From a virus: 64,000 nt of DNA. The stretch is taken from positions 32,001 to 96,000 of IMG/VR virus record IMGVR_UViG_3300030109_005647, one strand, 5' to 3'. The notes below the pieces were generated by a model. The model saw nothing but the letters and a program-made list of their open reading frames with translations. It was not told the origin of the DNA and did not search any database. A program made the position numbers and the translations under genes. Positions 10,543-53,600 of the stretch are shown one piece after another. The first letter of the stretch is position 1. Every line of letters starts with the position of its first letter.

Positions 10543-10550
10543 TAAGTAGT
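10543..10550 (-). promoter_or_regulatory. late-promoter-like motif ACTACTTA (tube)
   Basis: Intergenic copy upstream of the SD. Confidence 0.6.
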
Positions 10551-16271: not shown

Positions 16272-16556
16272 CTAAATAGCTTTGTCTGTTGTTGGTTTAG
16301 TTGTTCTTGCCCTAGTGGTTGTAGTTCTTCTTCTTCGCTTTGGTGTGGCTACCCGCTCTGGAGGCGCACTAGGCTCTTCAATTGCAGGTATTTGTGTAGG
16401 TTGAGCTTTTTCAGCGATAGGTTCTGGCACCTGCTCGGGTTTGGGAAGTGGCGCTGGTGTGGGCGAAGTCACGGCTTTTGATTTTGATTTTTTTTCAGCC
16501 GCTGTTTTTGCCGCGGCGGCTTTAAGAGCATAATATTTCTTTTTTCTTGGATTCAT
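16272..16556 (-). CDS. small basic Pro/Thr-rich protein
   Basis: 94 aa; own late motif and AAGGAGGAG SD; low complexity with Lys/Arg-rich ends. Confidence 0.7.
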   Translation of the reverse strand: MNPRKKKYYALKAAAAKTAAEKKSKSKAVTSPTPAPLPKPEQVPEPIAEKAQPTQIPAIEEPSAPPERVATPKRRRRTTTTRARTTKPTTDKAI

Positions 16557-16575
16557 CTAAACTCCTCCTTTCTTA

Positions 16576-16583
16576 TAAGTAGT
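16576..16583 (-). promoter_or_regulatory. late-promoter-like motif ACTACTTA
   Basis: Lies just downstream of the MCP terminator. Confidence 0.6.
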
Positions 16584-16593
16584 TGTTTAGATA

Positions 16594-16628
16594 ATAAAAA
16601 ACCCCGCACCTCACAAGAAGCACGGGGT
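16594..16628 (-). terminator. intrinsic terminator after the major capsid gene
   Basis: Minus strand ACCCCGTGCTTC-TTGT-GAGGTGCGGGGT followed by TTTTT. Confidence 0.85.
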
Positions 16629-16653: not shown

Positions 16654-18501
16654 TTAGCTGGCTGCGCCTGACTCTCCTAAGAGTCCACGACAGATAACTA
16701 GACCGTACATATCCGGACGAACCATCTTCTTCGCGTAGCGAGTCATAACACCCTTACGTGGTACAAAGTCTTCCACACCGAAGATGGTAGGAGTGACCTG
16801 TAGTGGCACGTATGGAGCGTATACATAGCCGCTCTCTAGGAAGGAACCACCCTTACGCCCAACAAGAAGTAGGTTACGTGGGAAGTAAGGATCGACGTAT
16901 ACGTCATAGCGCTTGCTTAATGTACCAACTTGTTGCGCACCGGCTGCACCAGTAGCATCATCATGGGTTACATTAGCACGGAAGCCGGCGGTAAACTCAA
17001 GGATTGCTGACACCTCTGGAGATGTAACAATGAAGTTTGCGCCGCCGCGTAGAGTCTTACGGTGAATCTGAGCGGAGATATCATTAATAGTCTCGCCAAG
17101 AGTCTCGTACCACTCTGAAACGGTACCGGTAAAGTCTGGAGCAGCAACGCCTGCACCAACCTCGGCACCAGTTACGCGGTCCACGAATAGACCTGGGCTG
17201 CGTGACCAGTAGTACTTACCAGCAGTTGCACCCTTAACAAGATCCTCAAGGATCTCACGGTCGATCTCAAGAGCAATCTGCTCGGAGAGAATCGAAGTAA
17301 GTTCGACCTCTGCATCAAGGTTGTGGTAAGCGTTTAGGTCTTGACCTAACTCTGGAGTCCACTTAGCCTTGAGCTTCTTGGTAACTGCAGTCACTGACAC
17401 GGAATCAACCTTAAGGTTAATCTCTGGGATGTCAACGCTATTCTCAAGCCCGAATGCATCGGCTCCTACGACAGAGCCAAGAGCTTGCGATGTTGTAAAG
17501 TTATCAACAATCGGGAACGTAAGACCAGCAGCAAGAATGTCTGCGGATAGCTCTACTGGGGTTGCTGTATCCGAAGCGACAACAACTAGCAAGTCAGCCG
17601 TACCACGAGCAGGTGAATTTCCTGAGCGCTTATCAGCAACAGACTGGCTGAACTGAGTTAGACGACGCAAGTGGTTTGCGGTGCCGTTGTCAAGATCGCC
17701 ACCAGTAAGAGTAACAGCTACTAAGTCATCAAAGTTGAACTCAGTACCATTAGTACCAGTAAGAGCAGATCTGGCGATAGATGCAATTGCAACATTTGTT
17801 GTACCCGAGACAATTGATGGATCGTAACGAAGGATAGAGCTAATGTGATCAGACACAGCCTGAGTAACACCGCCGGTACCTCCGTTAAAGCTATCTCCAA
17901 CATCAGCAGTGTTAGCTGGGGAACCAAACGTACCAGAGAAAAGAACTGCGATATCGCCATCAAAAAAGCAAATCTCACCATTGGCGTAAGAAGCTGTTGG
18001 TGAGGAGTAACCATTGGTTAGGTTATAAAGCTGACCGCCTCCTGTGCCGTTCTCGCCATTTAAGGTGGCACCACCTGTCAACTGCGAACCAACAACGCCG
18101 CCGCCGTAGAGTGAATCATTGGCGCCGAAACCTAAACGTGACGTGTCAGTGGGGTTAGTTCCACCGAAAGTAAAGTCTAGGAAGAAGATAAGACCAGATG
18201 GAAGCGACATTGGCTGAACGCTAACAAGGTCATTTGCAATAAGACCACCGAATACACGACGGACAATTGGGAAAGCAACAGCAGCGAAACCTTCTACGTC
18301 GCCGCCTGCCATCGATGAAGCCGCCTCTTTAAGAAGCTGCTTTGCTTGGTTTTCGAGAAGACGCGCCATATTGTTTTTCTGCGCATCTGTCTGAAGACCT
18401 TCTAGAAGTCCGGTCTGCTCCCACTTATTGAGGAGTGCCGCACCTTCCTTACGCATGTCGCGTGATACGACACCTTCTGTAAGTTTTTGTAAAATAGACA
18501 T
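16654..18501 (-). CDS. gp23: major capsid protein (T4 gp23-like) with large insertion domain
   Basis: LVSVQPMSLPSGLIFFLDF, KLKAKWTPELGQDLNAYHNLDAEVEL, GYVYAPYVPLQ, PRKGVMTRYA. Confidence 0.95.
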   Translation of the reverse strand: MSILQKLTEGVVSRDMRKEGAALLNKWEQTGLLEGLQTDAQKNNMARLLENQAKQLLKEAASSMAGGDVEGFAAVAFPIVRRVFGGLIANDLVSVQPMSLPSGLIFFLDFTFGGTNPTDTSRLGFGANDSLYGGGVVGSQLTGGATLNGENGTGGGQLYNLTNGYSSPTASYANGEICFFDGDIAVLFSGTFGSPANTADVGDSFNGGTGGVTQAVSDHISSILRYDPSIVSGTTNVAIASIARSALTGTNGTEFNFDDLVAVTLTGGDLDNGTANHLRRLTQFSQSVADKRSGNSPARGTADLLVVVASDTATPVELSADILAAGLTFPIVDNFTTSQALGSVVGADAFGLENSVDIPEINLKVDSVSVTAVTKKLKAKWTPELGQDLNAYHNLDAEVELTSILSEQIALEIDREILEDLVKGATAGKYYWSRSPGLFVDRVTGAEVGAGVAAPDFTGTVSEWYETLGETINDISAQIHRKTLRGGANFIVTSPEVSAILEFTAGFRANVTHDDATGAAGAQQVGTLSKRYDVYVDPYFPRNLLLVGRKGGSFLESGYVYAPYVPLQVTPTIFGVEDFVPRKGVMTRYAKKMVRPDMYGLVICRGLLGESGAAS

Positions 18502-22072: not shown

Positions 22073-22172
22073 TATTAATCCTTGTAGCGGGCGTTACCCG
22101 CTCGCCTATCGATCCGCTGCAGCAGCGACGGACAGGTTGTAATTTCCATTTGGAAGTCCATTCGTTACGCAT
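22065..22172 (-). CDS. unannotated 35-aa Cys-Cys peptide
   Basis: AAGGAG SD then ATG: MRNEWTSKWKLQPVRRCCSGSIGERVTPATRINNG. Fills the gap and overlaps the protease start. Confidence 0.6.
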   Translation of the reverse strand: MRNEWTSKWKLQPVRRCCSGSIGERVTPATRINNG

Positions 22173-22174
22173 TT

Positions 22175-25812: not shown

Positions 25813-27390
25813 TTATCCCTTAAATATCCAAGAAAAATCTTTTCTTATTTTTTGCTCTTCATCAAATCTTTCTCTTAAAGAGTCTTTATATTGACCAGGG
25901 GCTCTTGTGTCCAAATTTGTTCTGGTAGTTGATATGCTATTTAAGAAAGCTTTTTTATATTCAACATCTCGTTGATTTTCTATAATAGCTGTATCTCTAA
26001 CCCAACAACCAATAGCTGCAGCCATAACCAAATCATCGTTATATCCGCGCTGGGCTTCCGGTCTTCCATTTTTCCAAATGAACGTATCTAACTCATTTGC
26101 CAAACGTTTAGAATAAATAGTCAAAACTTTGTTTCTTATGAACTCTTCGAACTTCGCAATGATTAAAGGTCTTGTTTTGAGAGACGTAGTGAAACCAGGG
26201 ACAACAGATGAATCCCCCAAAGCAGCGTGTTGTTCCACATACTGATGAGAGCCTTTTTTACTATGGTAAACATTTTTATATCCCTTTTCCAAAAGCTTTT
26301 CTAGAACACTGAAGCCTACGTTGTTGTTTTCAACGACCAACATTGCCTCCTTATATTCTACACCAGTTGTGTAAAGTATTTCAGAAAAAAGGTCTGAGGT
26401 TGGCTTGCCTTTATATTCCGCTACTATCTCCATTGTTTGTAATTTAAATACATGAAATGTGCTTGAGTCAGCGCCATCGCCGCGGGCGACATCTGCCACT
26501 AATAAATAGTTGTCGTCATCTTGTGCCTCTTCCCATATCCAAGTGTTTCTATCAAAACCAACTTTATATTTTGGTTCTGATATTCCCTCTTTTATTCTTA
26601 GGATATCGTCTCCATGTATAACAGTATCGCCAGACGTATTAAAGTTACATTCATATTCTTGCGCAATCTGGCGTCGAGACATGTTTTTGGTTTCTGTTTT
26701 AAACCACTCGTCATCTCTATCAGGATGCACAGCCCACGGTAGGTTAACCGGAAGAAATTCATTTTCTCCGCTTTCTGCGCCAACAAATGTTTCGTGAAAC
26801 CAATCTCCTACGCCATTTGGAGTTGAGATAGCAATACAACGACCACCAGTAGAAATGGTAGGATAAAGACCAGTCCACAATTCATCAAGTCCATCGATGT
26901 GTGCAGCCTCATCAATAACAAGAAGAGACAAAGCTTCTGAACGACCAGCATCACCTGACGTGGATGATGCCTTGACTTGACTGCCATTTGTAAGCTCGAT
27001 GCTATTTTTGTTATCGACGTTGAAGTCTGCTATCTTCAGCCAAGGAGGTAGATTCTTTAAAATAGTTTTTACTTTTTTTACTAAGTTTGCTGCTGTCGCT
27101 AGTTTTGTTGCAACAATAAGAACGTTCTTGTCTCTATGAAAAAGAACCAACCAGGCAACGTAAGCAGCAGTGATGGTAGATATACCTAGCTGTCGGGCTT
27201 TCAGAACAACGATAAACCTGTGGAGTGCTAGTTCATCTACTAGATCTGCCTGAAAATCATAAGTTTTGAATGGAATAAGACCTTTTCCTGGGTGCGGTAT
27301 CTTACAATATGTGTTGATAAAGTAAACGGGTTTCTTGCCCGATTTGACAACTTCTTTTACTATCTTTTCTTTTGTAAGTTTGTAAGCCAT
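25813..27390 (-). CDS. terL: terminase large subunit (gp17-like)
   Basis: LKARQLGIST Walker A, LLVIDEAAH Walker B, ISTPNG; nuclease motifs ADVARGDG.D and DDLVMA. Confidence 0.95.
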   Translation of the reverse strand: MAYKLTKEKIVKEVVKSGKKPVYFINTYCKIPHPGKGLIPFKTYDFQADLVDELALHRFIVVLKARQLGISTITAAYVAWLVLFHRDKNVLIVATKLATAANLVKKVKTILKNLPPWLKIADFNVDNKNSIELTNGSQVKASSTSGDAGRSEALSLLVIDEAAHIDGLDELWTGLYPTISTGGRCIAISTPNGVGDWFHETFVGAESGENEFLPVNLPWAVHPDRDDEWFKTETKNMSRRQIAQEYECNFNTSGDTVIHGDDILRIKEGISEPKYKVGFDRNTWIWEEAQDDDNYLLVADVARGDGADSSTFHVFKLQTMEIVAEYKGKPTSDLFSEILYTTGVEYKEAMLVVENNNVGFSVLEKLLEKGYKNVYHSKKGSHQYVEQHAALGDSSVVPGFTTSLKTRPLIIAKFEEFIRNKVLTIYSKRLANELDTFIWKNGRPEAQRGYNDDLVMAAAIGCWVRDTAIIENQRDVEYKKAFLNSISTTRTNLDTRAPGQYKDSLRERFDEEQKIRKDFSWIFKG

Positions 27391-27932
27391 TAATCATTTG
27401 GTCTGGTTACGTTTTCGGGGTTCTTGTCGGTTGATTGCTCAAGAAACTTTTTAAACTTATCCTCTAGACGATCTTCTGATGGTTCGCCAACAGGAATAAT
27501 ATCTTTCATATTGCCTATGGTATATACCTTAGAGGCTTGAATAAAAGTTCTTATTTTCGAAATGTTCTGCAGAATCATAGATGCAGGACCTTCTTCTGTG
27601 AGAGCCAATGTATCTCCAGAGAGATTCTTATATTCTCTCTTTAAAAACTTTGTAATATCGGCAAAAGTTTGCTCCAATTCTTCATCAAGCTTTGTGTTGT
27701 GAAAAGAGGCTAACGGCATCTCTGACTGATAAGAAACAATAAGCTTTGGACCGCTCATTCGAACTTTAAACCCGTCCATAACCCTTGAATCATTCAAAGC
27801 GCAACCTTTTTCACGTTTAAGACCAATTGGATCATCTTTGCCATCTGTTCGAAACCTCGAATCATGTGATCCATCATAAGCATTTGCTGCCGCTTGATTG
27901 ATTCCTTTAACAATATCATATACTGTAGCCAT
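27390..27932 (-). CDS. hypothetical protein
   Basis: Start re-called at MATVYDIV (ATG 27932, TAATG overlap, AAGGAG SD). Confidence 0.7.
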   Translation of the reverse strand: MATVYDIVKGINQAAANAYDGSHDSRFRTDGKDDPIGLKREKGCALNDSRVMDGFKVRMSGPKLIVSYQSEMPLASFHNTKLDEELEQTFADITKFLKREYKNLSGDTLALTEEGPASMILQNISKIRTFIQASKVYTIGNMKDIIPVGEPSEDRLEDKFKKFLEQSTDKNPENVTRPND

Positions 27933-28312
27933 TAATTTTGCTCCTTGTCGGGTCGCCAGCCTTCTAACCATTTTTCCTCTCTGCCTTCGACCCATTGAAT
28001 ATAACATTTATAACAACATTCAAATTTGTTCATATATAGATCATCTCTACCAGAGAAAGAGTAAGTGTCACAAACCGGGCAAACTCTTTTTATTTCTTTA
28101 TTAATTAGGTTTCTAGTGATGAAAAAGCCGTCTTCATTTATTTTGTCTTCAGCTTCTTTAGATTCTTCTGAATAAAAATGTTTTAAATCCTCTAAATATT
28201 GTTTTTCTTTTTCATCATCCCAGCCGGATTTTGGATTAGTAATGGATTCTTCTCCAAATTTCTTGGACATTGCTTTTTCTATTTTTGCAATTTGATTTAA
28301 ATCTTTTTTCAT
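27932..28312 (-). CDS. hypothetical zinc-finger protein
   Basis: CPVC...CCYKC motif; first gene after a late motif. Confidence 0.65.
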   Translation of the reverse strand: MKKDLNQIAKIEKAMSKKFGEESITNPKSGWDDEKEKQYLEDLKHFYSEESKEAEDKINEDGFFITRNLINKEIKRVCPVCDTYSFSGRDDLYMNKFECCYKCYIQWVEGREEKWLEGWRPDKEQN

Positions 28313-28352
28313 TTATAACCTTATAGAAATAAACATTATTGTAACACTATAA

Positions 28353-28360
28353 TAAGTAGT
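28353..28360 (-). promoter_or_regulatory. late-promoter-like motif ACTACTTA (terminase/portal operon)
   Basis: Lies just downstream of a terminator. Confidence 0.6.
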
Positions 28361-28365
28361 TTTTA

Positions 28366-28397
28366 ATAAAAAAGGGGAAGACCCGAAAGTCTTCCCC
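28366..28397 (-). terminator. intrinsic terminator after the 895-aa fibre gene
   Basis: GGGGAAGACT-TTCG-GGTCTTCCCC followed by TTTTTT (UUCG tetraloop). Confidence 0.9.
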
Positions 28398-28424
28398 AAG
28401 AGAACCTATACTAAAAGTAAAAGA

Positions 28425-31112
28425 TTACTTGTTCTCTAATTGCTTCTTAAGTGAAGCGATCTGTGCGGACTGCTCTTGGATAGCAGAAACAAGGATAGCG
28501 GATAGACGACCGTAATCGACACCGTAGAGACCCTCATCTGTACCGTGAACAGCTTGTGGCACAACTTGCTTAAGCTCTTGCGCCATGAAACCGAAGTCTC
28601 TGGAACCGTCCTTCTTCCAAGTGAAGTTAACAGCCTTAAGGTTGTTAACAGTCTCAAGACCGTTATCGATAGCGGTAACGTCAGTCTTAAGTCTTTCATC
28701 AGAGTAAGTTACGAAAGCTGCAGCACGAATCTTGTTCTGAGCATTAGAGCCATCAGCAACGTCAACAGCGTACTCACTAGTTGCATCACCACCAAGCTGT
28801 AGCCAAGTTACGCTTGAAGCATCAGTAAACTTGAGACGGTGATCAGCAGCAACGTACTCCATCTTCTCGCTGGCAGCGCCACCGTGGAATGTTACGTCTT
28901 TACCAGAACCATCAGCACCGAAAGCACTTGTGTCGTTGAAGTGAAGACCAGCAGAACCACCGTCGAATCTAACCACGTTAGCAGCGGATACGAACTGGAT
29001 GCTACCATCATCGTCATCACCAAAAGTTACTTTCTTGTCATCTTGCACAAGAAGACCCTCGTAGAACTCTGCCTCTTTGTGTAAGAAGATACCCTCTTGA
29101 CCATTTGTAGTATCGAATACCATGTAGTTATCCGAACCTTCTTTGATCTCTAGAGCAGCAGAGCGGTTGTCAGTTAAGCTAAGATCAATGTCTGTGCCAT
29201 CAGCAGAAATGCTATCAAGCGCAATGTTACCAACGTTAGTGATGTTACCATCGCGAACACTTAGTGAAGTAACAGTAGCAGCGCCGAAAGCAACTGTACC
29301 AGCTTGAATGCCGTATTGACCGAAATCTGCAGAGCCACTGAAGCGTAGACCGTTTGCCGTACCAGACATCTCTAAGATGTTATCAGCCGAAATGTACTTA
29401 AGGTGACTCTCGTTACCATTGCTACCAAGGTTAAGAACCTGATCATCTTCGATTGAAGCGCCCATCGCAAAGGATGCTTGCTTGCCAACCTGGATGTATT
29501 CTTGACCGTCTGTGGTAACAAACTTCATGTAAGAAGTTCCACCCTGGGTGATATCAAGCGCAGCGGCTTGGTTATCTGGAAGGTTAAGATCGATATCGGC
29601 ACCATCAGCAGAAATGCTGTCAAGAGCAATGTCACCGACGTTTGTGATATTACCATCGGAAACGCTTAGTGAAGTACCAACGAGAGCAGCGAAAGTACCT
29701 GCAGCAGCAGAGTTAGCACCGATAACAGTACCATCGATTGCACCACTGTCTACATTGATGTTAGTGATTGCTTGGTTATTTGCGTCAAGAGCAGCACCAA
29801 GTTGATCAGCGCGAAGCTCGTCAACGTAAGCAACACCGTCAAGGTAAAGATCCTTGAACTCAGCACCAGAAGCACCTAAGTCAACATCATTGTCTGTCTC
29901 TGGACGTAGAACACCGTCTTGGAGGCGAACCTCAGTTGTGCCACCAATGTTAAAGTCAAGAGCGCTATTAGCGTGATCATAAAGAACAGCAGCGTGACCA
30001 GCGGTGCTAGCACCACCACCGATTCTAAGACCACCACCATCAGCAAGAGCCGAAGAAGCGGAAAGGGCAGCAATAATTCTTCTATCAGAAACCTCAAGGT
30101 CAGTAGCTGTTGCAGTTACACTATTAATTGTGTTAACGTCAAGAACGTCAATTTGAGCGTAAGTAGCAGTCAGCGACGTAATAGTACCAACAGCTTTGTT
30201 AGCATCAAGAACGAGAGCCTTGCTAGCAGCAGCGGTACCAGCGGTAACACCGTCGAGGTAGCCAAGTTCTGTAGCATCAAGAGTTGTTGAATCAAGCGTG
30301 AAGCTTGTGTCAGCAGAAAGAGTACCGTTAACGGTAAGAGCACCGTCAGCGAGTGACATTAGGTCAGTATCAGAGTCACAACCAATGGTTGAACCATCGT
30401 CAACTGCTAATGACTTAAGTGCAGTGTCGCCATCTGCATCAACTGTGAAACCAGTCATTGTGACGGTTCCAGCGGTCATATCACCAGTCATGGTGAGGTT
30501 GCGAAGACCGCTTGCGTCCTTGTTTGAATCAAGAACAAGTGCCTTGTTAGCAGCAGCAGTACCATCGGTAATGCCGTCAAGCTTCTCAAGGTCAGTCTCG
30601 TTAAGATCAGCAGAACCAATAATAAACGAAGTGCCGGCAGTGACTGCACCAGTAGCAGTTACGTGACGGAAACCAGAAGCGTCTTTGTTAGCGTCAACAA
30701 CGACTGCTTTGCTGGCAGCAACGGTACCGTTGGTGATACCATCTAGTTTTTCCATATCTGTCTCATTGAGATCAGCGGAGCCGATGATAAACGAACCTTC
30801 TGCTGTGACGTTGCGGAAGCCGGAAGCATCCTTATTTGAGTCAACAACAACTGCTTTGTCAGCAGCAACGGTACCGTTGGTGATACCGTCAAGTTTTTCG
30901 AGGTCAGCCTCGGACATATCGGCAGAACCGATGATGAACGAACCAACAGCAGTAACGGAACCTGCTGCAGATAGACCAACATTTGTACGGACTAACTCAG
31001 AGCCTGCGGCGCCTGAGAGATAAATTGAACCGCTCGCCGCTGGTGCGGTGGCGGTGTAGCGTTGTAAGTCAATATACTTTCCATATTCACTTACTGTAGC
31101 GGGACTAGACAT
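28425..31112 (-). CDS. repeat-rich virion fibre protein with C-terminal S74 intramolecular chaperone
   Basis: YSDERLKTDV...FGFMAQEL...YGVDYGRL...IQEQ S74 motif; internal repeats; AAGGAGG SD. Confidence 0.8.
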   Translation of the reverse strand: MSSPATVSEYGKYIDLQRYTATAPAASGSIYLSGAAGSELVRTNVGLSAAGSVTAVGSFIIGSADMSEADLEKLDGITNGTVAADKAVVVDSNKDASGFRNVTAEGSFIIGSADLNETDMEKLDGITNGTVAASKAVVVDANKDASGFRHVTATGAVTAGTSFIIGSADLNETDLEKLDGITDGTAAANKALVLDSNKDASGLRNLTMTGDMTAGTVTMTGFTVDADGDTALKSLAVDDGSTIGCDSDTDLMSLADGALTVNGTLSADTSFTLDSTTLDATELGYLDGVTAGTAAASKALVLDANKAVGTITSLTATYAQIDVLDVNTINSVTATATDLEVSDRRIIAALSASSALADGGGLRIGGGASTAGHAAVLYDHANSALDFNIGGTTEVRLQDGVLRPETDNDVDLGASGAEFKDLYLDGVAYVDELRADQLGAALDANNQAITNINVDSGAIDGTVIGANSAAAGTFAALVGTSLSVSDGNITNVGDIALDSISADGADIDLNLPDNQAAALDITQGGTSYMKFVTTDGQEYIQVGKQASFAMGASIEDDQVLNLGSNGNESHLKYISADNILEMSGTANGLRFSGSADFGQYGIQAGTVAFGAATVTSLSVRDGNITNVGNIALDSISADGTDIDLSLTDNRSAALEIKEGSDNYMVFDTTNGQEGIFLHKEAEFYEGLLVQDDKKVTFGDDDDGSIQFVSAANVVRFDGGSAGLHFNDTSAFGADGSGKDVTFHGGAASEKMEYVAADHRLKFTDASSVTWLQLGGDATSEYAVDVADGSNAQNKIRAAAFVTYSDERLKTDVTAIDNGLETVNNLKAVNFTWKKDGSRDFGFMAQELKQVVPQAVHGTDEGLYGVDYGRLSAILVSAIQEQSAQIASLKKQLENK
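29095..29675 (-). repeat. two ~59-codon direct repeats inside the fibre gene
   Basis: TSLSV(S/R)DGNITNVG(D/N)IALDSISADG.DIDL.L.DN..AAL.I..G...YM.F.TT.GQE at about 29500-29675 and 29095-29270. Confidence 0.85.
30486..30944 (-). repeat. three tandem ~49-55-codon repeats inside the fibre gene
   Basis: SFIIGSAD..E.D.EKLDGIT.GT.AA.KA.V.D.NKDASG.R occurs three times; a degenerate fourth copy follows. Confidence 0.9.
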
Positions 31113-31142
31113 ATTTTAAAATCCTCCTTATAAGTCTAAATC

Positions 31143-31195
31143 TCGGGTGGGGCTTAATCACACCCGATACCGGGTGGTACGAAATCACACCCGGT
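31143..31195 (-). promoter_or_regulatory. tandem twin-hairpin leader element
   Basis: ACCGGGTG-TGATTTCGTAC-CACCCGGT, then A, then TCGGGTG-TGATTAAGCCC-CACCCGA, between the late motif and the SD. Confidence 0.65.
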
Positions 31196-31200
31196 CTAGA

Positions 31201-31207
31201 TAAGTAG
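31201..31207 (-). promoter_or_regulatory. late-promoter-like motif CTACTTA (fibre gene)
   Basis: 5 nt upstream of the twin hairpins. Confidence 0.6.
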
Positions 31208-31211
31208 AGGT

Positions 31212-32144
31212 CTAAGTCGCTTCTGTCCCTTGTTTAAGACACTTTATTTCGTCTTTTAAATTATCTATTTGATTTTGTTGAGATTTAATTCCTTCAAGGA
31301 GGATAGGTATAATACGAGTGTAGTCCATGCTCATGGCTTGAGGAGAATTTTTATCATTTTCGTTGTCCCACTCTACAATAATAGGTAGTTCTTTTCCAAC
31401 CTCTTCAGCAATAAACCCGTAATCTTTTTGATCATTTTTTTTCCACGTAAACGTGACACCGCGAAGGTTTTGTATAGTTTTTATAGGATTATCAATAACT
31501 TCTACGTCTTTTTTGAAACGCTGCGAAGAATAGGTCATATAGGCGTTTGCTTTAATTTTTCCACTGTTATCTGCTACATCTGGTAGTGTTATGCCGTGTG
31601 TTACGCCACCAATTGGTATTCCTACGCCTATTTTTTGATCTACATACACGTTAGATCCAGATAGAACAATACCATGAGCAGATCCTGATAGCTCTAAAAA
31701 ATTATCGGTTGCGTCTTTAAATCTTACGAAAGAATCATTATCGTCGCCAAAGAAAAGTTTGATATCATCTCCAAACTTCATGTTGGTTGCACCGCCACCA
31801 TTTTGAGACGGCACGATTTCAATACCACCAGCTATTTGAAGAGGTGAGGCGCCTTCCAGTGTTCCACTAATTTGAACCGTGCTGCCTGATAGCGTTAAGC
31901 CATCATTGCCATCATATTCAATAGACGCATTTGAGCTATTTCCAAAGCGTAATTTAGAATTATCTGCTAATTTTATATCAGTGTCGTCAAAAGTTAGCAC
32001 GGAAACTGCTCCGAGTTCTCCATTGTTGTTGAATTGTAATTGATTGTCTGAGCCAGCGGGTTTAGCTAAAACTGTTGTTGCAGAGTCATCTTTTACTATT
32101 TTAAGCAATCTTCTTCTGGACCACTTTCTTCTACCTCTACCCAC
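31212..32144 (-). CDS. short fibre-like protein with S74 chaperone domain
   Basis: YSSQRFKKDV...LRGVTFTWK...YGFIAEEV...MDYTRIIP.L.EGIK; basic N-terminus. Confidence 0.75.
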   Translation of the reverse strand: MGRGRRKWSRRRLLKIVKDDSATTVLAKPAGSDNQLQFNNNGELGAVSVLTFDDTDIKLADNSKLRFGNSSNASIEYDGNDGLTLSGSTVQISGTLEGASPLQIAGGIEIVPSQNGGGATNMKFGDDIKLFFGDDNDSFVRFKDATDNFLELSGSAHGIVLSGSNVYVDQKIGVGIPIGGVTHGITLPDVADNSGKIKANAYMTYSSQRFKKDVEVIDNPIKTIQNLRGVTFTWKKNDQKDYGFIAEEVGKELPIIVEWDNENDKNSPQAMSMDYTRIIPILLEGIKSQQNQIDNLKDEIKCLKQGTEAT

Positions 32145-32602
32145 TACTTATTCACTCCTGCGTCCACCGCAAAAACAACGGCTAAGGTTAAACCTATGCC
32201 GACCACTACACCACCCACTGCCCACCAAGTAGAGTAATCTTCTTTACCAGTCGCTATGTCTGATAATCTTTTTATTTCTTCATCTTTGATATCTATTAAT
32301 GTGGTGTGCTTTTCTTGTAAAGCGTCTAGACTAGCTTTTTGAGATTGTATGGTGAGATCTAGTCTTGCCTTTTGTTTACCCAACTCATATTGAAGTTTTA
32401 AATCAAATTGTTCTTCAAGGTATTTTTTATCTGAAAAAACTCTTGCTGCGGCAATATTATCCAACAGCACACCAGTGTAAGGTGCGTGTTCGCCTTTTGA
32501 CAGTCCAGTTATTTTACCTTTTGGAAGGGGATCTTCCGCTAAACAAACTGGGGTATATGCCAATGAAAAGCATAAAACTAGTGCTGTTATTTTACTCAAC
32601 AT
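32144..32602 (-). CDS. secreted coiled-coil protein with C-terminal membrane anchor (spanin-like?)
   Basis: Signal-peptide-like N-terminus, coiled coil, C-terminal WWAVGGVVVGIGLTLAVVFAV. Confidence 0.5.
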   Translation of the reverse strand: MLSKITALVLCFSLAYTPVCLAEDPLPKGKITGLSKGEHAPYTGVLLDNIAAARVFSDKKYLEEQFDLKLQYELGKQKARLDLTIQSQKASLDALQEKHTTLIDIKDEEIKRLSDIATGKEDYSTWWAVGGVVVGIGLTLAVVFAVDAGVNK

Positions 32603-32996
32603 AGTTTAGCCCATATCTTTCTGCTAAAACTTTTGCTAAATCATCAGGTCTGTCGTTATACTCTTTCACTATCTTTTTTATTTCCTGTTTTTTCTTTTTG
32701 CTTATTGCCATGTTTTTATCTTTATAGTCTTTCTCTAGCTGTAATAAGATAGTGTCATACTTTTTTAAAATGTTGTCTCTTGTCTCAATTTCTTTTCTAT
32801 GTGTGTCTTCTATCGCTTTTATCTGATCTTCATAACTTTTAGAACGAATCTCTAATACGTCTAATGCTTTTGTCTTATTTCTAAACAAAAACCATAAAAC
32901 CAGGGTGTAAATAATAACGGCTGGAACATACCAGTTGTGCTTTAACCAAGCCCAAGTTTTCTTTAAAGTTGATTTTAAAGTCAATAAAGTTAACAT
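32592..32996 (-). CDS. membrane-anchored coiled-coil protein (i-spanin-like?)
   Basis: N-terminal TM (WYVPAVIIYTLVLWFLF) then coiled coil; start re-called at the TAATG overlap at 32996. Confidence 0.5.
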   Translation of the reverse strand: MLTLLTLKSTLKKTWAWLKHNWYVPAVIIYTLVLWFLFRNKTKALDVLEIRSKSYEDQIKAIEDTHRKEIETRDNILKKYDTILLQLEKDYKDKNMAISKKKKQEIKKIVKEYNDRPDDLAKVLAERYGLNYVE

Positions 32997-33214
32997 TACT
33001 TTCCATGCTTCCATGTTGCAGCTATATCCGCGATGCCTTGGATACCAATATAAGCAAGTGAAACGGCTACCCAGTCTTCACTGGTTAGAGCACCACCTAC
33101 TAACATAAAATAAGTAGCAGTCATCCAGACCATAAGCTTTCTTGAAAGCAATCTTCCTATTGTTTTATCTAAAAAAGGTTTTACTTGTTTTGCTTGCTCT
33201 TGAATCTCTGTCAT
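32996..33214 (-). CDS. small two-TM holin-like protein
   Basis: 72 aa; SRKL followed by two hydrophobic segments; AGGAG SD. Confidence 0.5.
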   Translation of the reverse strand: MTEIQEQAKQVKPFLDKTIGRLLSRKLMVWMTATYFMLVGGALTSEDWVAVSLAYIGIQGIADIAATWKHGK

Positions 33215-33224
33215 CTTTTATCTC

Positions 33225-34517
33225 CTATGTTTCTGCTTTATATGGTTTTCCATCTGGAGTTTTTCCTCTTATATTTGCTGGTCCGGGGATTGTTACATAG
33301 TAAGGTGCTTGTCTATTTGACTCTGATCTCGGAAAAGCCCTAGTGAATAATTTATTTGCGGTGGAGTGTATTGTAAAACTCCCACCAAATTTTCTAGAAA
33401 AATCTTCCCCATTGTCATCATCTTGCCAATAGGGAATTGGTATAAATTCAAAAGCACCCATGTCGTATGCAGCACCCTGCGGTCTGCTTGTTCCATTAAA
33501 GTCGACTGTAACAGAAGCGATTGTTTTACCTGTGTCAATACAAGGAGATCCCTCTTGAAGTTGAAGCCCCTCGGGAAAACTTGATTCATTAACAAATTGC
33601 GGATCAGCTATGACCTCGCCCCTTCCATCTGTTGCTCCCGCACCGGTGTTGTCTTTTATTGGTCCATTATCCGTACCAAAGGTACCAGCGACACAATTAT
33701 TTGAATACGAAAGGTCTGCATCTATTCCTGTTAAGGCAACGTTTACACTACCACCGTTTATATTTTTGATAATTGTATTTTCAACTACGCCGGCGCGAAT
33801 GATTGTGGTGCCGCTGTTCCCGCGATCCACCAATATCGTACAATTTCTTACTATAAAGTTATGATCGTTTCCGCTGCTGTCGTCAATATAGTTATTAGAT
33901 GTTGTTGATGCAGTGTTATGAAAAATAGAATTTTTAAATAATACGTGTTGGTCGTCACCACCGTTATTAACAATTATCGTGTCTGCACATGTAGCCTTAA
34001 CTTCACAGCGATTCAATAGATTAGGTATATCAGCCGTGGCTCGTCCCGGATCATTGAAAATGTTAACATTTGTCATTTGTTGAAATGTACAATCGGTAAA
34101 TTGTATTGTCGGATTGCCATTGCTGACGGTGTTGGTTGTGCATATATCATTGCCACTTCCATTAAAGTCACGAAAAGTAATGCCTTGAAAAGCGATTACT
34201 GTACTGGCTGGTGCGTTTGCCCCATTAAAAGCTGGTCCTGTGCTAGAGGCTCGGGCGCCTGCACCTGTAAATGCGGGGGTTTGTCCTTCGGCTGCAACGA
34301 AGTTAATGCTTCTAGATGCGAAACATCTACTTTGGGTGTTGCTAAGTCCTGAAAGCGTTTCGCCTGGATTGTAAGTATTAGAGTCTAATATTCGTATTGT
34401 GCCCCCGTCTGAAGGATCCAAGCGAGCTATTCCCGCTCGTAGACTTTTTACAGGTCGGGCTTCGGCACCATCAAAGCTATCATTACCACTAGTATCTGAA
34501 ACAAATATTGTAGTCAT
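33225..34517 (-). CDS. right-handed beta-helix (pectin-lyase-like) protein
   Basis: IFVSDTSGNDSFDG...PVKSL N-terminus; FxNxxF/N repeats; DPQFV...LQEGSPCIDTG...RPQGAAYDMGAFEF C-terminal motif. Confidence 0.7.
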   Translation of the reverse strand: MTTIFVSDTSGNDSFDGAEARPVKSLRAGIARLDPSDGGTIRILDSNTYNPGETLSGLSNTQSRCFASRSINFVAAEGQTPAFTGAGARASSTGPAFNGANAPASTVIAFQGITFRDFNGSGNDICTTNTVSNGNPTIQFTDCTFQQMTNVNIFNDPGRATADIPNLLNRCEVKATCADTIIVNNGGDDQHVLFKNSIFHNTASTTSNNYIDDSSGNDHNFIVRNCTILVDRGNSGTTIIRAGVVENTIIKNINGGSVNVALTGIDADLSYSNNCVAGTFGTDNGPIKDNTGAGATDGRGEVIADPQFVNESSFPEGLQLQEGSPCIDTGKTIASVTVDFNGTSRPQGAAYDMGAFEFIPIPYWQDDDNGEDFSRKFGGSFTIHSTANKLFTRAFPRSESNRQAPYYVTIPGPANIRGKTPDGKPYKAET

Positions 34518-34525
34518 TTAGAACC

Positions 34526-37500
34526 TCAAATCATAATGTGTGCGAACCCCTCTTTTTTATCAATCGTGATTTGTTGGTCCACACAATCTTTAAGATGGTC
34601 AAGGTGAGAAATCAAAATGACCGTTTTAAAGTATGTCTTAATTAGTTCTAAAATTGAAATAAAACCATCCATATTCTCGGCATCTAACGCAGTCCCCGGC
34701 TCATCAAGAATAAAGACGTTAGACTTTGGAAGAGATGATACAGATAGAAGGGCAAGACGAATAGCCATTGCTGCTAGCGTCTTCTCTGCGCCTGAGCCCA
34801 TTTCAATAGGGCGACGATCATATTTTGGATGCTTAATAAATATATTAAGTCTTTTTTCTTCTGCCTCAAAGAAAATCTCAAAGTCTACAACGTTGGCTAA
34901 GATGCGAGACATTTCATCATTGATAATAGGCAGCTTCTTTTTGATAATGTCATAAGCAATGCCGTTAGGGTGCATACACTTCATTAGAAGGTCAAAGGCT
35001 GTCATCTCGTTTTGTAGATTATGTAGCCATTCTTTCTTTTCTTGTAGTGTCTTAACCTTTTGAGCTAGTGAGCCATTCTCTCTGTGGAGTTTTAGCAACT
35101 CGTCTTGGCAGCATTTTATATCCTTTTGTTTTGTTAATAAAGCTTTCGCTACTTTTGCCAACTCCAAAGTAAACAATTCTTTATTTTCTATAAGGTCTTT
35201 GTTTTTATTATAGTCATTAATCAAAAGGTTGAGCTTCTGAACTTCGTTCTGTGCTGTAAGTATGGAGTTCTCCCACTTACCCTTTTCAAGATCGGTTTTA
35301 AGAACAACTTTTTCAGCTTCTCTTCGCTTCTCCATTAGTTTTTTGTATTTTTCTAGATGTGAGTTTATTTTTTCTTCGTCAGTCTTATTCAGTAGACTTT
35401 CTGCTTTATGCTTTTGCTCGTTTATCGATTGAACTTGTCCCACGAGATCTACTAGGGTTTCTTTCGAAGCGTGAGCGTCTTTGATAAACTTACAAGACTT
35501 GAACTTATCTCCACAAGGAACATCGCCAAGAAGCTTTACTTTTTTCTCGTTTAGTTTTTTAAGATTCTCTGCGTTTTCTAGCTCCATTAGAAGATTGCTT
35601 ATTTTGAGAAGTTTTTCGTCTATTTCGTCTTTTTGATTTTTCACGGAGACTATATCAAAAGATTCCTCAAACTTCCCAATCTTGTCTAAAAGTTCTTTCT
35701 TTTCAGCAAGTATTATATCACACTGACTAACACTGGTGTTGTAAGTCTGGATATTCTGTTCTTGTTTAGTTTTTTTCTGTAGAACTTCGTCAATGTTAAT
35801 GACTTCTGCCGGAATAGAACTTATCTTTGTTTCAAGATCTTTTTTGTCCATTTGTAGAGACATTAACTCGCCGTTTAGTTTCTCACAGGTTTGGTTTTGC
35901 TCCTGTATGTTGTTTTCAGAAAACATCATTTGTTTTTCTATTTCATAGATTTCGCTATCATAGTCAATATCTTCTGCTTTACGGAGTGCGCCGCGAAGAT
36001 CTGTTGCCTCGTCTTTGATCAACTTATACTTTTTCTCAAAGAACTGGAGGTCTAGAAACTTTGCGAGTGCTTCTTTCCTTTTTGTAGAACCATCGTTGAT
36101 AAAACGAAGAGAGTCAATCTGCGAAGACATAGAAGTCATTAGGAAATCATCGACGTTGCCAAAATGATTTCTGATAATAGCGTCAGTTTCATTTCTAGTC
36201 GTGCCGTTGAGAATGGTTTCTTCTTCCGTTACAATATCTTTTACCTTAAATAAAATATCTGTTTTGGCTTCTACTGTTTCGTCGCCTCTAAGTTTTTTGA
36301 TATACTTTTCGCTTTTGCGTTCGATTGTATAACTTTTAGGTCCAACATCGATTGTAACTGAACCAAGAGCTTCTTCTTTGTTTTGATTGATAATGTTGAG
36401 GTTTTTACGTTCGTTCTTGCTTGTTGAGTTGAAGATAGTGTAGAGCATACTATCGACAACTGAGGACTTACCAGAAAAGTTTTTACCAAAAATGCCGATG
36501 ATACCGTTTAACTTATCAAAGTTTATAGAGTTGTCCTCGCCATAGTTAAATAAGTTATTCCACTGCATAGAGCGCAAGTTCCAGTTTATATTGCGCTGAA
36601 CGTCTTCTTTTTCCGCTAAGGCGGTATTACATTTGCGATTTAGTTCATATACCGCTTCTAACTGCTCGTCTGTCGCCTCAAAGTCTTTTAAATACTCTTT
36701 GATAAGTTTTTCTTGAACTGTGACGTCACGTAGATTGTCTTCTACATCGTCAGTTGCCAGATCTTCGACGCTGCCTCTTTGACCAGCAGAGCGGTTTAGA
36801 TAACCAATGCTTTCTGGTTTAAATCTGTGTTTGGCTGCGTCAATAGCTCGTCTCATCGTGCTAACAGGCAGACTATTTTCTGAAACAAGACGAATACGAG
36901 CACCCAAAGGGCAATCTGTATTTTTGGGCAATCGACCAGTTCTAGTTAGATTGATAGTGACGAAAGGCTTTGGATTTGGAATTACGACATGCTTCACCGT
37001 AAAGTTTTCTTTGTCTTGGATATCCCAAATAAGAAAACCTTTATCATTCGTCTCTCCGAAGTTCTGCTGAACAGTAGAACCTGGATACCGTATTTTTCCT
37101 GCGTCGTCTAGTGCTTGATTTGTTTTATGGATGTCGCCTAAAAAGGCGTAGTCGAATTCGTCAAAGATCGATATCTCGTTTTCTCCGTGCTGCATTGTCC
37201 AGCCGACATCCGTGCGGCAATTTGAAATAGACCCGTGATACAGACCAATGTTAATAACATTATAGTCGGTAGGATCTCTCCAATTATCCCTATCAAATAC
37301 GCTAAGAACGTTGAGACATATTTCTTCATTTATTTTTACCTCTCCGCTATTCTTCAACAAGAAGAGGTTTGGAAGATCCAAAGCTTCAACTATTGGAGTA
37401 ATAGCATCTTCTCGGCTACTATTTTTCAAGTTGCCGTCATGGTTTCCAAGTATTATATAGGTCGGTGCGACAGAACTTAACCCACTTAGGAATTCTGAAC

Positions 37501-50641: not shown

Positions 50642-53600
50642 CTATTGCCCAAAGGGATCGGAACCGCCAAGGTTGCCAAGCTGCGCTAATGACTGCCCTA
50701 CTGCTGTAGCGCTGTCCACTGTTGTCGATGGACCTCCATCTGGTGTGCTTACACCTGCTCCAGTACTACTACCAAAACCGCCTGGACCAGAAGGATCTAT
50801 GAAATCTGTAGTGCCGCCTGCGCCGACTCCAGGTAATGCCGATGCTGGTGTCTCTGGTAGTGGAGCATATTCATTCTGGTCGGCATCAGACTTAGACGGT
50901 GCGCCAAACTTTTCTTGTATTTCTTGCGTCGGAACTTTAACAGAACCATCTTGCGGGGTCATTGTAATTTCCGCATCTAATTTTACTAGCTCTACCATAC
51001 TAAAGAAATCATATGGCCAGTTATATGTGATATTTGGAAACTGCTGTTGATTTGCAAATTTAAAATCAAACTGACCGCCATCATTAATATTGGTTGTTCT
51101 CTCAAAGTAATTAGTCGCTGCTCGTTTCTTAGCCTTGAATACCATCCATTGTATATCACTAGTATACTCTCGTGATTTAGATATTTGTTCTTCGTTCCCT
51201 AATATCTTTTTGCCATTGATCAAATTCAACTTAAGAGAGTTAAATACTTCGTGTGATATTGTAACTTCATCGCTGTCATGGTAAAATGGTGATGCTCCAA
51301 TTGACACTGGGGGTAGGTTTTGCCAAATGTTAGCCAAGTCTTCTTGTGTTAGAGTGCGTGTAAATTCAAAAATATACATGGCAAATGGACCACCAGGAAT
51401 TTGTTCAATACCAAGTTTACCAGGAACATTGTTTTTGTAAGTTATAAAGTCCATGTGTGGTGGAATAACATATCTCTGCATTTTGTCTACCATATCCACA
51501 ATACTTTGATCTGCTAATGGATTTTCTGGTAGCGTCCCGTCTCCTGGCTGGTTTCCTTGTAGTATTAATTCTGCCTGATTAACAGCATCTCTGGATATTT
51601 TAAATGTAACTTTATTACCGCCTACAACTCTAAATGGAATAGCGACCACAGCTTCGCTAATTTCTTTACTTGATCCCACTTTTCCTATGCGTTGTGGTAC
51701 TTTACCGTTTGTTTTGTCGAACCCAAGAAGGTCAGCGAGTGAACCAGTGAGGCTTGTATCGTTAACACTAGATGGGTCGGCTATAGAAAGAAACGCACCA
51801 TTTGCCTCGTCAATTTCTCCATATTGGTGCCACATGCCAACTCTTCCAGTGTCACCAGTGCTGGCTATTGTTGATTGTGTTACGTTTTTAAAATTCAACA
51901 TGGGGCATTCCCATTTTGGCTCAATAATCATAACATCAATTTCATTAATATCTTTTTTAACCGTTTTTGGTTGACCGGTAATCGCATCAAAATCTGTCTC
52001 TAATATTCTTGCCTTTCCAATGTTAAAAGAAGAAGTAAAATGCTGTGCGTATTTTGTGGCGGCTTGGTCAAACGCAGAGCCTTGGGCTCCTTGAAAGCTA
52101 GCGGTTAAATTATTCATTATTTCATCTAAATCGAAATAAGTAAAATCGTCTGGATCGAGCGGTCTATAGGTTAAAGTTAATATTCCTGCGCCCGTCTTGC
52201 TGTCTAGGGTAGCATGTTTATATACAGGAGCGAAAGCTGAGAAGTCGACTGCTGTTCCTACCGGTACGCCATATGCTGATCCTTGTTCATAGTTAAAGAA
52301 TGTAGTGTTTTCATTTTTAAAGTTAGGACTATTTGAAATTCTTACCTGCATTGTATACTCTTTAAACGATTCTCCTCCTGGCTGAATTAATTTTTTAGTA
52401 TTGCTTGCAAAATCAGGATGATTTGATGGCAACGAGGTCAGTCTTGTCATCCTTCCTTGTGGTAAGAAAAAGTTAATCGATTCTGCGAAGAAATTATTTG
52501 CCGCTAAGGTATAAAGTAGTGTGCTTTGATTATCTGAAACTTTAAACGTGTATTGTGAGGTACTTTGTAATCCTTCAAACTTCTCTCCAGCATATGAAGT
52601 ACCAAAACCAGAGGCTTGGTTAGCAATTCTAGCATCATTTATATGTAAATCATACCATGTTAAACTTCCAACGTTGCCACCTATATTCCCATCAGGATCT
52701 ATAATTGCTTCAAATGGTATTCTTGTAAACGGCTGTGTTCTTTCATAGAAAGGATTAGTGCCTGTAGATGATGTCACATAAGCAACGCTTCTTCTTGTGT
52801 CATTAACAGAATTACTGGGCATTGGAAAGTCAACCGCCAAGCCTGCTTTAATAGAATTATACATTATGCCTGGTGCGTAGAAAGGTGTAAGTCCAGCGCG
52901 TGCTGAACCGCTCGTTAAGTTATTCCCCTCAAATGGTCCTAGATATGAAGCGCTAAATAAGTTTGCCAACTGCGTTGTTCTTTGAGCAGGGTAAAAACCG
53001 TCATAGGGCAAGAACTTTATCAACGATTTACAACGCATAGTAACTCTATCTATCACTGTATCATCTGTTGCGTCCTCTGTGATTTCAAAGAACTTTAATA
53101 AATCAGTAGTGTTATAAACTTTGTAAAATTCTGGATTGGTGGCATCTAAAACAGATGACCCGGTTAAATCTAAGAATGGCTTTGTTGGGTTAATCTGTGG
53201 ATTTCGTGCGTTAATATCGAAACCAGTGTTGATGTAATCTGTCATATACTCTGATATTCTAAACTCTGGTATAATAGAATAATCTTTTCCTAGTGTTCGA
53301 ATCTCATTAGCATATTCAGCATATGTTGTGTAAGAAGGATTTAGTCCTGATTGTAAGCCGGCATCCCAAGCGGTATCGTTGACGATGCCAATCGTTGAAG
53401 AACTAACCGGCAGCGTGTAAAGAGGGCTAACAAAGTGATCACCGGCAGAGTTCATAAATACTGTACAGTTATTTTGAAGCTCACCTGCGCCATCCGTACC
53501 CTCAAGATTTGCTGCGGCGCTCTTTACGTTTAGTCTCGCATCAAGTGCAAAAATACTTTGCTTTGGAATGGTGAACCCAATAGAATTAACTGCGTTTTCT

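Follow-up and report, generated by a model that had tools for sequence, protein, structure and literature searches.

In the leader of bacteriophage T4 gene e, according to the excerpt of PMC3014915 on which we rely, an RNA helix carries the ribosome-binding site in its 3' arm, and a late promoter is located within or beside its 5' arm; the long read-through RNA is closed and the RNA begun at the late promoter is open. A base-paired 5' end, as stated in an excerpt of PMC3997798, hinders RppH and 5'-end-dependent RNase E. Here we analyse the leader of a tail-fibre-like gene of an uncultured marine phage, in which two GC-rich hairpins stand one base apart on the minus strand (31143-31195). Coordinates refer to the window, that is, the whole 64,000-nt stretch analysed, which corresponds to bases 32001-96000 of the 138,595-bp IMG/VR record IMGVR_UViG_3300030109_005647. 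We put at about one half the probability that the element is a 5'-terminal stabilising stem-loop set within a gene e-like gate and duplicated in one sub-lineage. The evidence comes from the structure and conservation of the hairpins, from the promoter-like box that precedes them and from the predicted folding of the ribosome-binding site that follows.

Structure and conservation of the twin hairpins

The hairpins lie within a 99-nt spacer (31113-31211) between two tail-fibre-like genes. Hairpin 1 (31169-31195, minus strand), the copy common to relatives, has an 8-bp stem, ACCGGGTG/CACCCGGT, that closes an 11-nt loop, TGATTTCGTAC. Hairpin 2 (31167-31143), the extra copy, has a 7-bp stem, TCGGGTG/CACCCGA, and an 11-nt loop, TGATTAAGCCC, and is separated from hairpin 1 by a lone A at 31168. 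Both stems are perfect and contain six G:C pairs each, both loops have the form UGAUU-N5-C, and the two hairpins are 83% identical (repeat family D19). Read along the gene strand, the spacer runs from the upstream stop codon TAG through ACCT, a late-promoter-like box CTACTTAT and CTAG to hairpin 1, the A and hairpin 2, and then through GATTTAGACTTAT, AAGGAGG and ATTTTAAAAT to the ATG at 31112-31110. Hairpin 1 thus starts at the fifth base 3' of the box and 16 nt past the upstream stop codon, and the Shine-Dalgarno (SD) sequence AAGGAGG of the 895-aa fibre gene (31123-31129, minus strand, with GGAGG at 31127-31123) begins 13 nt 3' of hairpin 2. An earlier note on this DNA had described the same twin geometry and placed the hairpins 5 nt after a late motif and about 13 nt before the SD; its description of the hairpins is borne out in full.

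The 72-nt spacer folds as two hairpins at -26.0 kcal/mol (z = -3.82), and one of 200 shuffled sequences was as stable. Cross-pairing of the shared arms, which the earlier note had raised as an alternative and which would amount to a switch, is possible on paper, but the minimum-free-energy and centroid structures both consist of the two local hairpins and we set the switch aside. A pseudoknot or long-range pairing between loop 1 (AUUUCGU) and ACGAAAT, located 57 nt upstream in the upstream gene (31252-31246), was likewise rejected: such a match is about at chance level, and the ACGAAAT complement does not covary with the loop variants of two relatives, L195 and L196.

Searches with Rfam 15 at gathering thresholds gave no match in the 64-kb window, and the best scores of a permissive search at the site were far below threshold (caiA, 19.8 bits versus 55.5, E 0.61; lysM-TM7, 17.2 bits versus 61.5), in agreement with the earlier note, whose author recognised no matching RNA family. 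A literature search, with supplementary files outside its scope, found no description of it. As a separate observation, the leader of a gp21-like prohead protease gene (22073-22174, minus strand) also contains GC-rich hairpins that lack a U-tract, for example GAGCGGG-UAA-CGCCCGCU, which ends 9 nt before AAGGA; the 126-nt fold has a z of only -1.13.

The scan for the shared pattern that had been proposed was carried out at several levels. The pattern CGGGTGTGATT-N5-CCACCCG, with up to two mismatches, has two matches in the window against 0.00 expected from 100 shuffles, and the shorter pattern GGGTGTGATT-N5-CCACCC, also with up to two mismatches, has two across the 138,595-bp record, so that these are the only copies in 138.6 kb. 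Perfect 7-bp stems with at least five G/C and a loop of 3-14 nt occur at six places in the record, two of which are the twin hairpins. A covariance model, R1, which scores hairpin 1 at 50.9 bits, found only the expected sites in the genome (next match, E 0.13) and no further copy in 69 related loci (539 kb). An IMG/VR scan with the 14-base core GGTGTGATT-N5-CCACC returned at least 118 stretches; among the 118 matches listed, only four (L168, L170, L171 and L182) are the same leader, and the other 114 are chance matches, mostly in coding DNA. A search of IMG/VR with an exact 19-mer of hairpin 2 gave no match, and a search of IMG/VR with the SD/start anchor returned only already known contigs. 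The element is confined to one locus in the pattern and covariance-model scans, and a dispersed or mobile element was rejected.

Homologous leaders were collected by protein-guided IMG/VR scans, which gave 60 + 11 loci, and by one metagenome scan with the SD/start anchor, which gave nine more contigs. After deduplication, 17 distinct leaders defined by the common SD/start anchor were available. The hairpin family is present in 13 of them, as a single copy in ten and as a twin in three (the window, L197 and L201); the other four carry either a long bipartite hairpin (L192-L194) or a 10-bp GC hairpin (L015). Hairpin 2 belongs to a 27-nt unit confined to the three twin leaders, and it is identical in all of them, where hairpin 1 varies. 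L171 equals L201 minus exactly this 27-nt unit, and the twin state therefore appears to reflect a tandem duplication gained, or lost again, in one sub-lineage. Over its 25 positions, hairpin 2 is unchanged in both L197 and L201, whereas the ±100 nt around it differ by 10.7% in L197 and by 8.0% in L201, which may be taken as a modest hint of constraint. Among the leaders, the flanks next to the box are combined in a mosaic fashion.

Covariation was assessed in an alignment (A1) of 13 hairpin units, from which L203 (a duplicate of L199) and both additional hairpin 2 copies were left out; a bulged A in L202 that MAFFT misaligned was counted as unpaired cells. Standard pairs fill 92.3% of the cells, and compensatory changes are seen at three of the eight stem pairs. 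One of these is a G:C pair in seven rows and an A:U pair in six; the other two double-sided changes each occur once, one in hairpin 2 and one in L196. U·G variants occur at two stem pairs. None of 500 shuffles reached the covariation score, and slid controls pair 23-53% of cells. Coming from a small set of related sequences, this covariation is supportive rather than conclusive. The recurrence at homologous loci and the covarying stem that the earlier note had looked to are thus both found.

More distant syntenic loci (L005, L032, L025/L026 and L035) hold other, unrelated hairpins in the same slot. In all 13 spacers that were folded, which comprise seven unrelated hairpin sequences, a hairpin begins at a distance of 2-8 nt 3' of the box; z values lie between -1.0 and -6.5, with 11 at -2.0 or lower. 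Strand preference was compared by folding both strands. The non-family hairpins of L192-L194, L015 and L025/L026 fold better on the sense strand by 4.4-9.5 kcal/mol, and the replacement hairpins contain one to five G·U pairs each; the L032 hairpin is 1.6 kcal/mol better in sense and that of L035 1.1 kcal/mol better in antisense. Within the family, whose stems carry GGTG, L168 and L191 favour the sense strand, and L199 and L197 favour the antisense strand. Since unrelated hairpins share the slot and fold with G·U pairs on the sense strand, these results point to a gene-strand RNA stem-loop that is conserved in the leader, with pairing, not sequence, as the long-lived feature; and because the occupants of the slot are unrelated, a structure-based role seems preferable to a sequence-specific one. 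In general terms, the proposal of a cis-regulatory RNA in a 5' leader is supported, in that the leader holds a structured element that recurs in its homologues.

The late-promoter-like box and the predicted Shine-Dalgarno gate

The box CTACTTAT (31200-31207, minus strand) conforms to the consensus CTAYTTAT. CTAYTTAT occurs 26 times on the gene strand of the record and five times on the other strand. Within the 70 nt before 134 open reading frame (ORF) starts, CTATTTA is the most enriched 7-mer apart from SD sequences (10 of its 27 occurrences, 6-fold). The box usually lies 17-26 nt 5' of an SD-led ATG, as at the tail-tube, adaptor-like and other genes, and it directly follows two canonical U-tract terminators, at 16582 and 28359; looser forms (CTAATTAAT) are found upstream of the sheath gene. 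Examples of (A)CTAYTTAT in the window are at 10549, 16260, 16582, 28359, 31207 and 64242. The box is kept in 17/17 leaders, and as CTAMTTAY in the five distant loci. The genome also encodes a 249-aa gp55-like late sigma transcription factor (L209:9915-10664, G000 ~104915-105664, minus strand), which matches PHROGs phrog_234 (E 5.7e-8) and has no Pfam match. CTAYTTAT is therefore a probable late promoter, and in view of the strand bias, the enrichment and the late sigma gene we accept the earlier designation of the motif as late on that footing.

The spacing of certain boxes provides a clue to the transcription start. At four of the 26 boxes an ATG stands exactly 3 nt after the box, and three of these ATGs open ORFs of 442, 405 and 244 aa (window 1491; G000 8487, L207:7270-8487; G000 134475, L211:741-1475). 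Two of the three lack an SD and the third has only a weak AAGGA ~13 nt upstream, and of the other spacings between 0 and 11 nt none leads into a long ORF. This suggests leaderless late mRNAs that start 4 nt after the box. Because of this ATG spacing at the leaderless-looking ORFs, we place the start of the late fibre mRNA at 31195-31196 (minus strand): it would be either 31196, the base before hairpin 1, or 31195, the first base of the hairpin. The fibre leader would then measure ~84 nt, compared with 14-23 nt for the other boxed SD genes, and it is the only leader of a boxed SD gene that contains a hairpin.

Occlusion of the SD was computed by partition-function folding of 207-nt read-through contexts. 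In the window, a predicted anti-SD, CCTC (31207-31210, minus strand), abuts the box and overlaps its first base. It is predicted to pair with the SD at a probability of 0.97-0.98 in the read-through RNA, and the SD is predicted to be free of pairing at a probability of 0.02 in the long RNA versus 0.49 in an RNA begun after the box. The read-through SD is predicted to be unpaired at 0.13 or less in 11/17 leaders, and RNAs begun after the box give 0.38-0.70 in 17/17. As a genome control, 58 SD/start sites had a median of 0.40, with eight at 0.13 or less. In 15 of the 17 leaders, the likeliest partners of at least three of the five SD bases map to positions -13 to +3 counted from the start of the box. 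Two anti-SD solutions are found: CCTC abutting the box, in the window and seven other leaders, and CCTTC or TCTCC in the last codons of the upstream gene. Since the SD partners lie at or before the box, late transcripts would lack the anti-SD.

Taken together, these observations fit a leader with the following mode of action. The stem-loop would act as RNA of the gene strand, either directly at the 5' end of the late fibre transcript or only a few bases from it. The gp55-like sigma factor would use CTAYTTAT, transcription would start ~4 nt later, and the late fibre mRNA would begin with the hairpin. Its paired 5' end, together with the strong intrinsic terminator that closes the fibre transcription unit (28397-28374, minus strand; a 10-bp stem followed by TTTTTT, canonical by the terminator scan), may yield a long-lived monocistronic mRNA for a long gene. 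In read-through RNA, which is plausible because primase and SbcCD-like replication and recombination genes lie upstream on the same strand as the fibre gene, the pre-box bases CCTC would pair with the fibre SD, with the hairpin or hairpins nested inside the helix. By the logic of T4 gene e, the gene would stay silent until the late promoter fires, and only late-promoter transcripts would be well translated. The second hairpin, as a 27-nt tandem duplicate, would add stability or redundancy and no new function.

Several observations weigh against this interpretation. We infer both the promoter role of the box and the start position, and in L015 and L192 a start at +4 would lie as much as 2 nt into the stem. 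SD occlusion is absent in 6/17 leaders (0.40-0.55), and five of the 58 genome SD sites, the fibre site included, have values of 0.05 or less and are equally occluded. The stems of the GGTG family are perfect palindromes with no overall strand preference, L199/L203 carry an A·C mismatch (G·U in antisense) and a 10-nt loop, and the hairpin of L196 is directly followed by TTTTTT, as in a terminator. UGAUU, the second-position G and the last C of the loop are kept even between the paralogous hairpins 1 and 2, a conservation that counts here because a purely structural role does not need it. Finally, the relatives are not independent samples. Public sequence runs add little on the transcript: 20 runs hold the stretch, stored as contigs, and the five recorded RNA runs among them hold 0.05-0.07 of the sampled words. 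The contigs of one RNA run (X16) cover 30700-30907 and 31260-31544 and none covers the spacer, which makes them uninformative on transcript ends. Run X9, RNA only by guess, holds 0.24 of the sampled words and has a 5.4-kb contig that spans the stretch with a single 1-nt deletion, at 31196.

Alternative roles for the hairpins

Hairpin 1 stands close behind a stop codon, and the element could instead be an intercistronic 3'-end element of the upstream operon, either a leaky terminator or a barrier to 3'-to-5' exonucleases. The distance of 16 nt from the stop codon fits such a role, as does the T-run of L196. AUUUA or AUUUUA lies 3' of the hairpin in most relatives, and the hairpins of the distant loci L032, L026 and L035 are followed by short T-rich runs. 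However, the clear terminators of this phage (16582 and 28359) have U-tracts and are placed before the box, not after it, and the box stands between the stop codon and the hairpin in 17/17 leaders and in the five distant loci, where a terminator would cut short the late transcripts of the gene itself. The twin form, moreover, has AUCGGG after hairpin 1, which is thereby cut off from the U-rich run, and GAUUUAG after hairpin 2. Six consecutive Ts follow the hairpin in only one of the 13 family leaders (L196). We regard this explanation as unlikely, though a 3'-end role could coexist with a stabilising role at the 5' end of the late mRNA. A canonical intrinsic terminator was rejected outright, as it had been in the earlier note: GC-rich stems are present, but there is no U-tract, no T-run follows either stem, the hairpins lie 3' of the box, and the terminator scan made no call on either of them.

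The conserved loop raises another question, namely whether a protein reads it. Operators of this kind are known, since T4 gene 43 has a hairpin operator next to its SD (in the excerpt of PMC3014915 cited above). The hairpins could be operators for an unrecognised RNA-binding protein of phage or host that binds a bulged hairpin with a UGAUU loop, controls translation or decay and times fibre synthesis late in infection, with lineages that carry the duplication having evolved cooperative, dimer-like binding. Nearly all units (12-13 of 13) retain UGAUU, the final C and the GGUG/CACC pairs at the top of the stem, and this includes hairpin 2, whose 3' loop half is otherwise entirely different. The bulge-like G-C closure of the loop fits a protein operator, and hairpin 2 is invariant in three diverged contigs. 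Against this stand the ten of 13 family members that have a single hairpin and the nine related leaders (4/17 and the five distant loci) whose slot is filled by unrelated hairpins with different loops. The same two facts tell against the earlier proposal of a tandem site for a dimeric protein as the functional unit, given that the twin occurs in only 3/13. Neither the pattern scan nor the covariance-model scan found a second operator-like site elsewhere in the genome, and a comparison of 135 ORFs, most of them unannotated, with PHROGs revealed no RegA-like, RegB-like or coat-like RNA-binding protein. The loop conservation may merely reflect the shallow divergence of the contigs. We consider an operator role, cooperative binding included, quite doubtful; if true, it would add a new phage translational-control module on top of a gene e-like gate.

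The palindromic nature of the stems also brings to mind a site that works as DNA, either an inverted-repeat operator past the promoter or a site of cruciform formation or recombination that separates exchangeable fibre modules. Perfect palindromic stems do occupy +1 to +53 of the putative promoter, between fibre genes with variable distal parts, and the mosaic combinations of box-proximal flanks fit such a site. Yet the wobble variants (L168 and L191) and the G·U-rich replacement hairpins pair on the sense strand only, no partner recombination site was found in the record, and PHROGs and Pfam scans found no recombinase or invertase near the site. The only four related sequences among the 118 IMG/VR pattern matches listed are all this same leader. 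The suggestion of DNA operators or recombination sites made in the earlier note is weakened by the sense-only G·U pairs and by the lack of another genome copy, and we consider it very improbable.

Two hairpins one base apart, directly after a promoter-like box, resemble the put site of phage HK022, a ~65-nt double hairpin that acts as an antiterminator (PMC8632103, in the excerpt consulted), so that a nascent double hairpin might modify RNA polymerase for terminator read-through. Both hairpins are evidently not required, as most relatives (10/13 family leaders) have one, the short simple stems argue against a put-like role, and read-through is not obviously needed, since the next terminator closes the fibre gene and has a box of its own behind it; we give this idea hardly any credence.

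Two other candidates were rejected. An RNase III processing site of the T7 type comprises about two turns (~20 bp) of double-stranded RNA, and the stems are only 7-8 bp. A hairpin associated with the target of a diversity-generating retroelement was rejected too, as no long imperfect repeat links the fibre gene ends to a sequence elsewhere in 27000-36000; no reverse transcriptase was found among the scanned ORFs.

Genomic setting and comparison with known leaders

The window has a G+C content of 37%, and 131 of its 133 called ORFs are on the minus strand. To judge from its gene content, the record is a distant T4-type myovirus. PHROGs and Pfam scans identified a T4-type structural set (sheath, tube, baseplate hub and wedge, and portal) and the head genes for a gp21-like prohead protease, a major head protein and the large terminase. 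The large terminase shares no more than 46% identity with that of any deposited phage, with Flavobacterium phage vB_FspM_immuto as top match, and a comparison of 1.2 kb around the site with deposited phages found no nucleotide similarity.

The gene served by the leader (28425-31112, minus strand; 895 aa) matches PHROGs tail-fibre families, and its product has a C-terminal Peptidase_S74 chaperone domain (Pfam PF13884, E 4.3e-16). Upstream lies a fibre-like gene of 310 aa (31212-32144, minus strand; PHROGs and Pfam), whose stop codon TAG (31214-31212) is 4 nt 5' of the box and whose product also ends in Peptidase_S74, so that this intramolecular-chaperone domain terminates both proteins. The distal parts of both flanking fibre genes differ between relatives. 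The terminator that ends the downstream gene occupies 28374-28397. The N-terminal third of the 895-aa fibre gene (30194-30948, minus strand) contains tandem coding repeats of ~147-165 nt (49-55 aa) with 62-77% identity, and homologues match this segment in variable numbers.

Other features of the genome were recorded along the way. A single ORF of 3173 aa occupies 50642-60163 on the minus strand. A 336-aa adenylosuccinate-synthetase-like protein is encoded at L211:1501-2511 (G000 ~134501-135511, minus strand); it matches Pfam PF00709 (E 1e-81) and PHROG 1211, annotated '2-aminooxy adenylosuccinate synthetase', and could be of the PurA type or of the PurZ type (2-aminoadenine DNA). In the early region, L207:6355-7269 encodes a DNA-modification protein of the Mom type (Pfam PF25680, E 4.7e-12) and L207:4727-6304 a chaperonin that resembles GroEL (phrog_5725, E 2.5e-136). 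Near-consensus sigma-70 promoters (TTGACA-N17-TATAAT-like) are present in early-region spacers at G000 ~4360-4400, 6310-6350 and 18100-18190 (in window numbering, -27643, -25695 and -13899). These early promoters, together with strong AGGAGG sites, suggest that the host uses sigma-70 and SD sequences in the canonical way. A run of ten Ns inside a 163-nt spacer (G000 ~16440-16600, window -15560 to -15398) is either an assembly gap or a masked stretch.

The hairpins represent a new sequence family. As a device, the element is a compact variant of what is known from phage and bacterial leaders and does not found a regulator class of its own. If the proposed 5'-terminal stem-loop and gate are real, a distant, uncultured marine relative of T4 controls a structural gene with mRNA tricks of T4 and of Escherichia coli, its late-promoter consensus is unlike that of T4 and the promoter still lies inside the SD-masking helix, and a protective 5' stem-loop and an SD gate are merged in one compact leader. 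With single, double and unrelated hairpins in one slot, the leader is a small natural experiment, and the set of leaders could be used to test the effect of 5' structure on the yield of a phage receptor-binding protein.

Of the described systems, several hairpin devices share single features with this leader. Like the intrinsic terminators and intercistronic hairpins of T4-type phages, it has a GC-rich stem in an intergenic spacer past a stop codon; unlike those terminators, it has no U-tract (L196 excepted), an 11-nt loop, and a hairpin that lies downstream of the promoter box. With HK022 put it shares a double hairpin directly after a promoter-like box, but it measures 53 nt, has simple stems of 7-8 bp, and its second hairpin is dispensable in relatives. 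The T4 gene 43 operator, in the same excerpt of PMC3014915, is likewise a small hairpin, with a loop of some size, that directly precedes an SD; the present hairpins differ in that they have no known cognate protein and that their sequence is not conserved across the wider leader family.

The parallels behind the proposed reading are the 5' stabilising stem-loops of the ompA/papA type and the leader of T4 gene e. As in the former, a stable hairpin near the putative 5' end is followed by an A/U-rich single strand and an SD; here, however, we infer the 5' end from the sequence, and the element is duplicated in this lineage. The predicted fold resembles that of gene e in that the putative anti-SD abuts the promoter-like box, and the SD is predicted to open from 0.02 to 0.49 unpaired when the RNA begins after the box. 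The differences from gene e are that the consensus is CTAYTTAT, in place of TATAAATA in T4, that the helix encloses inner hairpins (two in this leader) that would stay on the late transcript, and that the occlusion, known here from in silico folding, is predicted in only 11/17 relatives. These comparisons are consistent with a leader that joins the SD gate of gene e to a stabilising stem-loop at the 5' end of the late mRNA.

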